Shown piece after piece: positions 14,026 to 19,663 of a stretch of DNA of 20,000 nucleotides. The translations under genes were made by a program, and so were the position numbers. The stretch spans positions 109,917 to 129,916 of IMG/VR virus record IMGVR_UViG_3300003320_000087. One strand, given 5' to 3'. The notes under the pieces were generated by a model that was not told where the DNA came from, did not search any database, and saw only the letters and a program-made list of their open reading frames with translations. Within the stretch, counting starts at the first letter, position 1. Every line of letters begins with the position of its first letter. This stretch comes from an uncultured virus (IMG/VR IMGVR_UViG_3300003320_000087) (taxonomy: Duplodnaviria > Heunggongvirae > Uroviricota > Caudoviricetes).

Positions 14026-14466
14026 ATGCTGAACCAATATATTTGCCTAAATTGTTACAATGGCAATTGCGACGAGTGTGCTGATAAGCACAAGGTTTTC
14101 CCTGATTGTCAGCATGAATGTAACAGGCAGAAGGAAGAGGCTCGGAAGATGAACGTCCACAAGCTTGACGTAGTTGCCGAGAATGGTGTACCGTTCCGAG
14201 TGGTGGTGCTGGTTGACGGGAAGTCTGAGAATTTCAACACGGCTTCCTTGAGCAATAAGAGTCTGGTAGAGTTCTATGACAGGCGCTATGACTTCACCCC
14301 TGATGGTCAGTTTACCGGTCATCGTATCTACCTTGACACTGCTCTTGAAGCCTCTGTGTACACCATGAGCTTTGACCAGCCTTCTTGGCAGATGGACTCT
14401 CGTACTTCCCGAACGGTTCGCGATTGGTTGCACTTCCTGGTTGACAGGGAATCGGTTCGGGTGTAA
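14026..14466 (+). CDS. hypothetical protein with Cys-rich N terminus
   Basis: RBS AAGGAGGT; 146 aa. Confidence 0.75.
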   Translation: MLNQYICLNCYNGNCDECADKHKVFPDCQHECNRQKEEARKMNVHKLDVVAENGVPFRVVVLVDGKSENFNTASLSNKSLVEFYDRRYDFTPDGQFTGHRIYLDTALEASVYTMSFDQPSWQMDSRTSRTVRDWLHFLVDRESVRV

Positions 14467-14484
14467 GGTAGTAACACGTAAAAC

Positions 14485-14527
14485 GGTGGGGCAAGGTGAG
14501 ATAAGTTCCCCAAACTCCACCAAGCTT
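14485..14527 (+). repeat. hairpin-AAGCTT element 21 (imperfect long stem)
   Basis: GGTGGGG...CTCCACC-AAGCTT. Confidence 0.7.
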
Positions 14528-14533
14528 TCTAAA

Positions 14534-14910
14534 CTGCCGATGACCCCGGAATGAAAATTCCGGGCGAGGACAGCCCCAATAGCATAATCCCGGCGAATGC
14601 GCCTTTAGAATAGTAGGAGATAGCAGGTTCAAATCCTGCTGGGGTTGCTAGGACAAATCTTCTGTTAGATTGTGTCCTAAGTAAAATGACCGGCTAGCTC
14701 GTGTGCAGGAACGCTAAGGGTGCTTTCGCGGGGATTCAGTTAGAATCCCACCGAACGTTTAAAGGTCCTGTTCCTGTACTAGGCGAGGGTTAATGGGCTT
14801 AGTAGGAAATCCCCGAAAAGTCACTGATAACAATTACCGGGTAGCCCAGTTAAATAGCGAGGTGGAGACGAAAGTCGTAGAAGCCAATGACCTATTTAAC
14901 TGGGCTTTTT
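14534..14910 (+). ncRNA. structured RNA cluster (two kink-turn hairpins, tRNA-like element, multibranch domain)
   Basis: No credible ORF; many long helices; ends in a 15-bp stem plus T run. Confidence 0.55.
14572..14647 (+). tRNA. tRNA-like element with aberrant anticodon arm (identity undetermined)
   Basis: Acceptor AGCCCCA/TGGGGTT, D arm GCAT..GG..ATGC, T arm GCAGG-TTCAAAT-CCTGC; anticodon arm pairs only CCT/AGG; no encoded CCA. Confidence 0.6.
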
Positions 14911-14944
14911 GTTTGACCAAAATCGTCTGAAGGAGACAGTAAAC

Positions 14945-15133
14945 ATGATGATTCCCGCTCCCCGTGTTGCTGAGCCTACCGTATTGAAGTGCCGTGAGGA
15001 TGGCTGTGAAGGCACTTATGAGCCGTACCGAGATGGTTCGCTGTCCTGTTACTGCGGCAGCCGCTCTAACCTCACTGTGGACGATGTAGAGATTCTGAAC
15101 ATGACCATTGTGTATGAGCGTAGCGACTGCTAA
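14945..15133 (+). CDS. small Cys-containing protein
   Basis: RBS AAGGAG before ATG 14945. Confidence 0.7.
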   Translation: MMIPAPRVAEPTVLKCREDGCEGTYEPYRDGSLSCYCGSRSNLTVDDVEILNMTIVYERSDC

Positions 15134-15851: not shown

Positions 15852-16325
15852 ATGATTGGCTGTGTTGAGGATGCCGAATTCATTGCAGAATGGGATTTTC
15901 GGCATCCTCTTCCAGATGGGTGGAGTTTTGCCGGTGAAGGCGCAACACGTGTTGCAGTGATAAGCCCGGATGGAATTGTCTATAAGGTAGAGCTTAGTCC
16001 AGATGGTTCTAATTCAAACGAATATATGAACATTCAGAGGATTAAAAAGCTGCCTCCCATTAAGGGATGGGAAATTGCGGATGCCTCCCTTTACATTCTA
16101 GATAACTTCAAATCAGTCATTGCTATGGAATACATTGAAGGCAGTGATGATATTGAATGCGGTTCGTATCTTGGACCAGAGTTTAAATGCACATGTAAAA
16201 TGAAGCCTTGTGTGGCTTATGTGTGGGAGGTCACCGCTAGACTGTGGGGTGTGTGGGACCTTACAAGTGATAACATCAGAGTGCAGCCTGATGGTACTCG
16301 GATTGTCATCGATGCAGTGTCTTGA
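15852..16325 (+). CDS. minimal protein-kinase-like fold protein
   Basis: GEGATR (Gly loop), VYK, NEY, AMEYIEG hinge, DLTSDNI catalytic loop, VIDA. Confidence 0.65.
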   Translation: MIGCVEDAEFIAEWDFRHPLPDGWSFAGEGATRVAVISPDGIVYKVELSPDGSNSNEYMNIQRIKKLPPIKGWEIADASLYILDNFKSVIAMEYIEGSDDIECGSYLGPEFKCTCKMKPCVAYVWEVTARLWGVWDLTSDNIRVQPDGTRIVIDAVS

Positions 16326-18639: not shown

Positions 18640-18883
18640 CTTCGCTACTCTCTGCAATGTTACTTTACAGTATGTGAGAAAAGCTCTGTACGCCCTTCTA
18701 AGAGCCTCCCAGGGATGCCAATAGGCGACCACCCCAGGACACCCGCGAAAGGCCGTTAGACGCGATTTTCACGTTGTGTAGTATCTGATGGAGTGTCAGA
18801 GAACCAACGAAAGCGCAGGTCAGACACTGTTTTTCAATCTGACAGCGTGTCAGGTTACCGGCCAGTGGTCACAGACTGCTGAC

Positions 18884-18892
18884 TGTGGATAA
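18884..18892. promoter_or_regulatory. DnaA box
   Basis: TGTGGATAA, perfect consensus. Confidence 0.55.
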
Positions 18893-19105
18893 CTTTCTTT
18901 ACCTAAACGTTACGAAGACACGCCGACATAGGGGTTGACAATCTTTAAAAAATTTGCATAGGGGGAAAAGCCGGCCACTTAGGTAAAATTTTGGTAAAGA
19001 AAATCAGAAATGGTTGACACAGACTGAGAGTGCCTGTATTTCGCGCACACTCACACACTCGCCGCATGTTGGGAGCGGCTAGGTTACTCGCGAGTTAACT
19101 AACGA

Positions 19106-19121
19106 TGTGACGCACGTCACA
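19106..19121. promoter_or_regulatory. CRP/GlxR-type binding site
   Basis: TGTGA-CGCACG-TCACA, perfect TGTGA-N6-TCACA. Confidence 0.6.
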
Positions 19122-19226
19122 CAAATAGCATGGGAAAGGTTAGGCATGCTAAACATGGCCTCTGACCTGCGAAAACTCACAAAACCGCAGGTCAGAGCAT
19201 AGGCTAGTGTTTACCTCAGAACGAAC

Positions 19227-19296
19227 GGCCCGGAGGAAAGCCCCGCAAGGGGCGAGTACAAAGGAAGTCGCGGTTACTTGAGAACTAAATAGCGGG
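19227..19296 (+). promoter_or_regulatory. rRNA-operon-leader-like antitermination element (hairpin + boxA-like)
   Basis: GCCCGGAGGAAAGCCCC-GCAA-GGGGCGAGTACAAAGGAAG...GTTACTTGAGAACTAAATAGCG closely matches my recollection of Streptomyces rrn leaders. Confidence 0.65.
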
Positions 19297-19640
19297 ATTC
19301 AGAAACACATTACGCACAAGGAAACTCGCGGGTCACTGCCTAGAGGTCTAGCTAGGAAATCACCCCTTACATTCTGCGAGTTGAATTGACATTCTCGGCA
19401 CTTTGCCAGGATTAGCGAACGGGCGGTTCTTCCCTTTCCGATATGCCAGGAAATATCGACCGTCGAATATAGTGCGATTCCTTTTGGGATAGCGGTAGAT
19501 ATCCAATGCCACTAAAGGGATTCAAGTAGCGAAATCCAGCGGGTGTTTTGTTTGTCAGTCGAAAGTGCGCCGTGTCCCGATTATCTAGGGACTGTGGCTT
19601 TAGACGCTTACCCTTTCGAGCGTCTAGTGTCCACAAAGGA
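19297..19640 (+). ncRNA. putative large structured RNA / 5' leader
   Basis: No + strand ORF; at least seven helices, several with G-U pairs. Confidence 0.45.
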
Positions 19641-19663
19641 ATTAGGGAAGAAAGTGAGTCATC

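Follow-up and report, generated by a model that had tools for sequence, protein, structure and literature searches.

In eukaryotic long non-coding RNAs of the mascRNA/menRNA kind, a tRNA-like element lies 3′ of a structured RNA and RNase P sets the 3′ end of the latter. Theta ribozymes lie 3′ of tRNA. For phage T4, the available portions of PMC3014915 and PMC9697503 describe two stable RNAs of unknown role, RNAC and RNAD, that derive from the tRNA region, and theta (HDV-like) ribozymes associated with phage tRNAs are the subject of PMC10879173. YrlA RNAs carry a tRNA-mimic domain with D and T arms in genomes that also encode Ro60, and the YrlA of M. smegmatis can be cleaved by RNase P (excerpts of PMC4201824). 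The k-turn of the Actinomyces-1 motif folds in Mg2+ and adopts the N1 conformation (excerpts of PMC8191799).

The locus studied here is a cassette of a Stanwilliamsviridae-like phage in which we distinguish modules A, T, B, C and E, all on the plus strand; modules D, F, G and H occur in relatives. Like T4 RNAC and RNAD, of which the sources above give partial accounts, these are phage non-coding RNAs tied to tRNA genes, and stable RNAs from a phage tRNA region are thus a kind already known from T4. Unlike those two, they comprise many interchangeable units with k-turns, a pseudoknot and a tRNA mimic, the two sets being likened by description and not by sequence. Modules A and T resemble mascRNA/menRNA in that a tRNA-like element stands directly 3′ of a structured RNA and could direct RNase P; a Rfam signal of this type in one relative is not significant (21 bits against a gathering threshold of 42.5). 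Module E recalls the theta ribozymes (PMC10879173) in being a pseudoknotted RNA next to a phage tRNA, but it lies on the 5′ side of the tRNA, combines a single predicted pseudoknot with a k-turn and gives no HDV-like Rfam match.

The window, the whole 20,000-nucleotide stretch analysed, is the last 20 kb of a virus record of 129,916 bases (G000). DNA matches of the region are mostly to Stanwilliamsviridae phages of Streptomyces (15 of 18 records). By ARAGORN the genome carries 32 tRNA genes and one tmRNA, and it also encodes Ro60, two RNA ligases and SsgA, WhiB and Lsr2-like genes. The cassette occupies a 442-base gap free of ORF and tRNA calls, surrounded by small, patchily shared ORFs; within 14468-14944 the longest stop-free run is 55 aa on the plus and 60 aa on the minus strand, and no annotated CDS covers A, B, C or E in the relatives fetched. 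The original prediction had read 14534-14910 as a single undescribed structured RNA of about 380 nt, or a processed RNA operon, bracketed by two k-turns. All of the features that it named are where it put them, namely the k-turn hairpin, the tRNA-like element, the hairpin at 14649-14679, the stems, the AAGCTT and the T run. Its view of an undescribed structured RNA or processed operon is borne out by the lack of any non-tRNA Rfam family or CDS and by covarying stems, and the Rfam comparison that it proposed returns only a weak tRNA match. The picture of one RNA bracketed by k-turns fails since the modules move independently among relatives and the k-turns are parts of different modules.

Rfam searches of 14400-15000 up to an E-value of 10 gave no k-turn riboswitch or leader, RNase P or ribozyme match, and no such family appeared at the modules in 26 relative loci up to an E-value of 5. 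No description of these RNAs or of their exchange emerged from a literature search by title and abstract, which covers the literature incompletely. The consulted part of PMC10690425 lists three DNA-virus candidates with Streptomyces hosts, 42-76 nt long; in its supplement, four short motifs are absent from files 3, 5 and 6 and six record identifiers are absent from file 4. Modules A, C and E are absent from Rfam 15, and overlap with the partly compared PMC10690425 catalogue is possible.

Comparison with relatives reveals the modular arrangement. The order A-T-B-C-E is found in the window and in the near-identical L012, A-T-B-C-D in TunaTartare, A-T-B-D in Sham and Blueeyedbeauty and A-T-D in Beuffert and Annadreamy. 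Faust and Moab carry A′-T′-B-C-D, Gilson A′-T′-B-D, L015 F-A′-T′-B-C-D and Comrade, Belfort and MeganTheeKilla D-A′-T′-B. In BE-type phages module E occurs at another locus, with F, G or H upstream of it and tRNA-Met downstream: F-E-tRNA-Met in Coruscant, G-H-E-tRNA-Met in BE-type phages and, in Genie2, a miniature C before tRNA-Met. Twelve BE-type loci were fetched, nine with E and three without, one of these three having the miniature C. Modules A and E were never found together in the parsed relatives (12 loci with A, 11 with E); they co-occur only in the window, in L012 and, on separate contigs, in run X1, whose contigs retain A, T, B and E. Of 50 related viral records, 28 of them near-complete, 7 gave strong E matches, with sequences in or near the training set of the model, and 2 gave C matches, a patchy presence as expected of accessory genes. 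On these comparisons, we consider it likely (probability roughly 0.8) that the cassette is a series of separately inherited structured RNA modules.

Module A is a k-turn hairpin (14537-14569) whose C-stem has only 2 bp, with a C-G pair at -1, C.C at 3b.3n and C-G at 4b.4n. The elements of a standard k-turn (C-stem, 3-nt bulge, tandem G.A/A.G, A1n and A2b) are present in A at 13/13 loci, with the tandem G.A/A.G, a C at 3b and a U at L3 invariant in all 13. The -1 pair is C-G in seven loci and U.G in six, position 3n is C in six and U in seven, and the cap varies from a tetraloop to a multibranch domain of ~60 nt. Because the NC pairs of its core are invariant, module A has no covariation support. 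Including the copies of module E, 3b is C in 25/25 k-turns. The GA/AG positions are conserved among relatives in both k-turns, and both window k-turns have C.C at 3b.3n and lie in opposite topology. Their near-identity is partly particular to this genome: they share the -1, 3 and 4 pairs here, yet the C-C third pair is not conserved, 3n being A in 11/12 E copies and U in 7/13 A copies. Shuffles of the cassette contained two consensus k-turns in 19/2000 cases, or in 1/2000 when C was demanded at 3b, and the genome as a whole holds 70 consensus matches on the plus and 24 on the minus strand; given how frequent the consensus is by chance, the real support comes from comparative conservation.

Available parts of PMC4382518 and PMC8191799 report that k-turns with C at 3b fold in Mg2+ alone, and the latter that L7Ae is able to bind the majority of k-turns in vitro. 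The Actinomyces-1 k-turn, as given in the same excerpts of PMC8191799, is like both window k-turns at -1 (C:G), 3b:3n (C:C) and 4b:4n (C:G), a likeness confined to the k-turn core, A and E being without a Rfam family match. By the rule for C at 3b, the window k-turns would fold in Mg2+ without L7Ae. The original prediction mentioned a protein sponge or scaffold as a possibility, and one could imagine a single ~380-nt scaffold whose two matched k-turns bind a protein of the L7Ae family, in keeping with the shared -1, 3 and 4 pairs and with the L7Ae binding of most k-turns in vitro (PMC8191799, in part). This is very improbable: A and E meet only in the three sources named above, module shuffling has already weakened the idea of one RNA, and no L7Ae family member was found among 146 ORFs scanned in G000 (one scan left out the structural-gene region). 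Among 301 Actinomycetes genomes, in which the share of Streptomyces is unspecified, there was one full-length L7Ae match and four weak ones in longer ORFs, so that an L7Ae sponge is unlikely and the k-turns are best read as architecture and not as L7Ae bait. Conserved k-turns in phages of a host group mostly without L7Ae point to protein-independent folding or to an unknown k-turn binder.

The k-turn hairpin core of A is also shared by GC-rich, unrelated viral contigs (L022, L023, L026, L038, L039, L049, L075, L079, L098, L125 and L138), in several of them shortly upstream of start codons; by appearance these contigs may be haloarchaeal. A loose A pattern in 14 of 64 parts of the viral contigs returned at least 120 loci, with no T-loop downstream among the matches listed. 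The combined A+T model matched 19/43 viral records at 20 places, comprising four true A-T loci, nine inspected places that are ordinary tRNAs without a k-turn and seven further places.

Module A ends 1-2 nt 5′ of module T (14571-14648), a tRNA mimic in which the acceptor, D and T arms are conserved and the anticodon arm is free to vary. It matches Rfam tRNA (RF00005) over 14573-14646 at 31.7 bits, the gathering threshold being 29, and ARAGORN at default settings makes no tRNA call on it. The acceptor, D and T arms, the D-loop GG and the T-loop consensus are all present, with one additional unpaired base before U8; there is no constant 5-bp anticodon stem, 7-nt loop or anticodon. Across 13 loci the anticodon arm ranges from no stem to at least 8 pairs, with differing loop lengths, and the changes that X1 shows in T concentrate in the D loop and the anticodon arm. 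An arm that varies so freely excludes T as a tRNA that decodes with one fixed identity. Its 3′ end is a purine followed by C, and 30 of the 32 ARAGORN tRNA genes of the genome likewise end in C without a full CCA; given this shared terminal C, T could still be trimmed and CCA-tailed. Homologues are annotated inconsistently in relatives, as tRNA-Leu, Undet or OTHER, and T shows that certain phage "tRNA" annotations are non-decoding mimics. The score barely above the Rfam threshold, the erratic annotation and the chance frequency of consensus k-turns would all suit a decaying tRNA pseudogene amid chance hairpins and terminators. We find this hardly credible: T varies nowhere but in its anticodon arm and D loop and has kept the pairing of its acceptor and T stems, and C and E covary.

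A tRNA mimic in a genome with Ro60 also raises the possibility that the modules serve, like Y RNAs, as additional partners or substrates of the Ro60 that the phage encodes. YrlA RNAs mimic tRNA (PMC4201824, in part), the genome does encode Ro60, and module D of the relatives begins with a GGUCGA-like word within a 5′/3′ helix. We nevertheless judge this improbable: the arms of T follow the ordinary order and are not permuted, and GNCGAAN0-1G has just two matches, neither conserved, which fall inside the D loop and GNRA cap. Ro60 lies at 72681-74309 of the record and the cassette at about 124450, some 50 kb away; in the portion of PMC4201824 consulted, by contrast, almost every best YrlA match is no more than 4 kb from Ro60. 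Moreover, Ro60 is present in 10/10 compared relatives while the modules are patchy, and two YrlA-like RNAs already sit beside the Ro60 of this genome. T shares with YrlA the tRNA-mimic domain and the company of Ro60; it differs in being unpermuted, lacking a conserved 5′ Ro motif and lying 50 kb from Ro60. YrlA (RF02553) gave no match at module T, and membership of the window modules in the YrlA/Y RNA class was rejected on arm order, 5′ motif and distance to Ro60 (class features as in part of PMC4201824).

The two YrlA-like RNAs themselves lie upstream of Ro60, at ~70476-70607 and ~71786-72007 of the record (L009 ~510-730). They have the permuted T-AS-D order, one of them with a long insertion, and fall below the Rfam threshold, one scoring 23.6 bits and those of relatives at most 30.9 bits; comparable pairs occur in L364, L366 and L372. 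Module D, seen at L001:1474-1566 and in 22 other Streptomyces phage records, is a three-way junction of ~90 nt with paired ends and the GGUCGA-like 5′ word mentioned above. It is a candidate Ro60 ligand, and a motif search found no copy in G000.

Module B, a hairpin at 14649-14679 directly 3′ of T, folds at z = -4.7; most relatives have a hairpin of other sequence at this position, and Beuffert and Annadreamy have none. Module C (14688-14791) is a long multistem element whose conserved base has two short helices flanking a GGCUA that faces GAG or GAA, and its stem 14703-14712/14770-14779 was confirmed. In five full copies, 8/24 pairs differ at both positions and 95% of cells are paired, a covariation exceeding all 500 shuffles (0/500) and all slid controls; most of the double changes come from the divergent Moab copy. 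The miniature C of Genie2 is 52 nt long and consists of the base only, and X1 has 122 other letters where C would be. A short C-core pattern, unable to match the long form, found nothing in genome_contigs.

Module E (14795-14907) comprises a first hairpin, a predicted pseudoknot and a long k-turn arm. The stem at 14843-14906 on which the second k-turn had been described is indeed present; the original prediction overlooked that the module begins near 14795, with the hairpin and pseudoknot. The first hairpin spans 14796-14822, and loop bases 14809 and 14811-14813, with U14810 bulged, are predicted to pair with 14839-14842. The arm has a conserved GGAG/AGAA internal loop and a GNRA cap, and in the window it forms a perfect 15-bp stem (14843-14857/14892-14906) followed by U5, while in the 11 copies that precede tRNA-Met the contiguous NC stem does not exceed 9 bp. 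In 12 copies the k-turn has A1n, A2b and C3b without exception, G1b and G2n in 11 (Naboo differs), a paired 4b.4n in 11 and always a 3-nt bulge.

All five pairs of the E NC stem covary, at a score of 0.568 compared with at most 0.17 in slid controls and 0/500 shuffles; because the homologues are related phages, such shuffle controls overstate significance. First-hairpin and pseudoknot pairs, which are out of register in the MAFFT alignment, were read by script. The pseudoknot pairs are retained in 12/12 copies with two kinds of double change, one pair being A-U in ten and G-C in two and another C-G in eight and U-A in four, probably reflecting two independent events. X1, which is independent of model building, adds two compensatory changes in the long stem, C14845-G14904 to U-A and A14852-U14897 to G-C, and has A14848-U14901 changed to G.U; its single contig, at depth 4, lacks one pseudoknot G. 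As modelled, E fits a predicted pseudoknot and a k-turn into ~113 nt, a compactness that makes it a good subject for structural study.

Such features could belong to a self-folding functional RNA, either an orphan aptamer sequestering a small signalling molecule or a ribozyme whose self-cleavage parts the modules. The pseudoknot with a bulged U between invariant As, the ion-folding k-turn and the invariant internal loop would agree with this; none of the G000 protein genes follows the distribution of E over 10 genomes, and phage ribozymes associated with tRNAs exist (PMC10879173). It is nonetheless a long shot in our view, as E gave no Rfam riboswitch or ribozyme match up to an E-value of 10 (5 in relatives), its first hairpin exists in two quite different forms and the pseudoknot is shorter in X1.

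Upstream of the modules, TTGACA (14441-14446), a 17-nt spacer and TAAGGT (14464-14469), with TG just 5′ of the latter, form a predicted HrdB/sigma70-type promoter. The pattern occurs at 36 plus-strand sites of the genome, of which this is one, and a strict promoter scan made no call here. A similar site precedes the cassettes of relatives, and in X1 the spacer is altered while the boxes are unaltered among the differences listed. A hairpin followed by AAGCTT (14485-14527, with AAGCTT at 14522-14527) would form the 5′ leader. It was correctly noted at the cluster start, although it is a genome-wide intergenic repeat and not specific to the cluster: a hairpin precedes AAGCTT at 49/93 plus-strand sites compared with 8/93 on the minus strand, and AAGCTT ranks first or second among palindromic hexamers in this genome and four BK-type relatives. 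Within the window such elements occur at 1384, 2534, 10421, 14522, 15438 and other places, often preceding a ribosome-binding site, and possibly act as RNA processing or protein-binding signals. At the other end, the T5 after the 15-bp stem (14906-14910) is a predicted terminator-like 3′ end, which a terminator scan did not call. Region 14530-14915 folds at z = -4.54, with 0/100 shuffles equally good, and the single modules each fold better than their own shuffles (z from -2.1 to -4.7).

We tentatively propose, at somewhat less than even confidence for the account as a whole, that the cassette is transcribed as one precursor from the promoter predicted at 14441-14469 and that host tRNA-processing enzymes cut it at tRNA-like ends. 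RNase P would cut near 14571-14572 and 3′ trimming would occur near 14648, freeing A and a piece made of B, C and E, which may stay joined because no tRNA-like cut signal lies among them. That tRNA processing sets module ends is suggested by the repeated placement of a structured module within a few bases of a tRNA or tRNA mimic that follows it: A before T, an RNA near 82.7 kb of the record and 14/14 BE-type loci, in each of which the last module stops 3-6 nt upstream of tRNA-Met. In 11 BE-type copies tRNA-Met takes the place of the U run downstream of E; with no tRNA behind it, window E would end at its own stem and U run. The resulting stable accessory RNAs would serve as decoys that engage RNA-binding proteins or nucleases of the host; T, taking no part in decoding, would offer an elbow and an acceptor end to enzymes that handle or attack tRNA. 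The decoy role is a best guess, chosen because the modules are accessory, exchangeable and conserved in structure and one of them shows only the elbow and acceptor of a tRNA.

The same placement between promoter and tRNA-Met in 14/14 BE-type loci, together with the small ORFs downstream of the stem and U run of window E, would also be expected if the modules acted in cis, protecting, timing or attenuating a precursor that includes the downstream tRNA or small genes. We regard this as rather unlikely: different modules, or a mere 4-bp hairpin (L479), precede the same tRNA, the tRNA-Met pair of G000 itself has just a small hairpin, the E fold is kept beside unrelated neighbours and the folds show no alternative structure. 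For the decoy account, exact words shared with actinobacterial rRNA, with Jiangella rRNA as a stand-in for the host, did not exceed shuffles (best 3/100, in one of 15 tests). Phylogenetic profiles of 250 ORFs across 10 genomes, two of them partial, gave no cognate protein for E or C; the sole E-like profile is a spurious frame over RNA and the sole C-like one a 50-aa ORF with an imperfect pattern. A bolder version, in which at least eight exchangeable, tRNA-punctuated structured RNAs, including a protein-independent E (aptamer sponge or ribozyme) and an anticodon-less decoy, make up an RNA-only counter-defence arsenal of Stanwilliamsviridae, strikes us as quite unlikely.

The modules look family-restricted and accessory. 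Models of E and C, each run against 141 Actinomycetes genomes without a positive control, found no copy, and of at least 117 loci matched by a loose E pattern in 8 of 64 metagenome parts, 115 lacked the pseudoknot pattern, two Mandalore-like copies being among the matches listed. A, C and E are structured RNA families of cultured phages that infect laboratory Streptomyces, and since natural relatives differ by single modules, the role of stable phage tRNA-region RNAs is directly testable.

Modules F, G and H (L007:1395-1490, L015:395-450, L013:548-640, L146-L157) are likewise conserved, exchangeable structured RNAs that sit in tRNA-Met leaders and have no Rfam match. An unannotated structured RNA at ~82640-82790 of the record, also without a Rfam match, adjoins a tRNA-Arg(UCG)-like gene, its homologues adjoining a different tRNA in G016, G023 and G029. 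It holds the sole segment of at least 30 bases that is common to both full E-bearing genomes and occurs in 0/6 full E-lacking ones. Elsewhere in the window, a 986-base gap near the genome end (18678-19663) has no plus-strand ORF and contains an inverted repeat at 18894-19002, and a 157-aa ORF at 15852-16325, without a Pfam match and with motifs that look kinase-like by eye, is common to four BK-type relatives.
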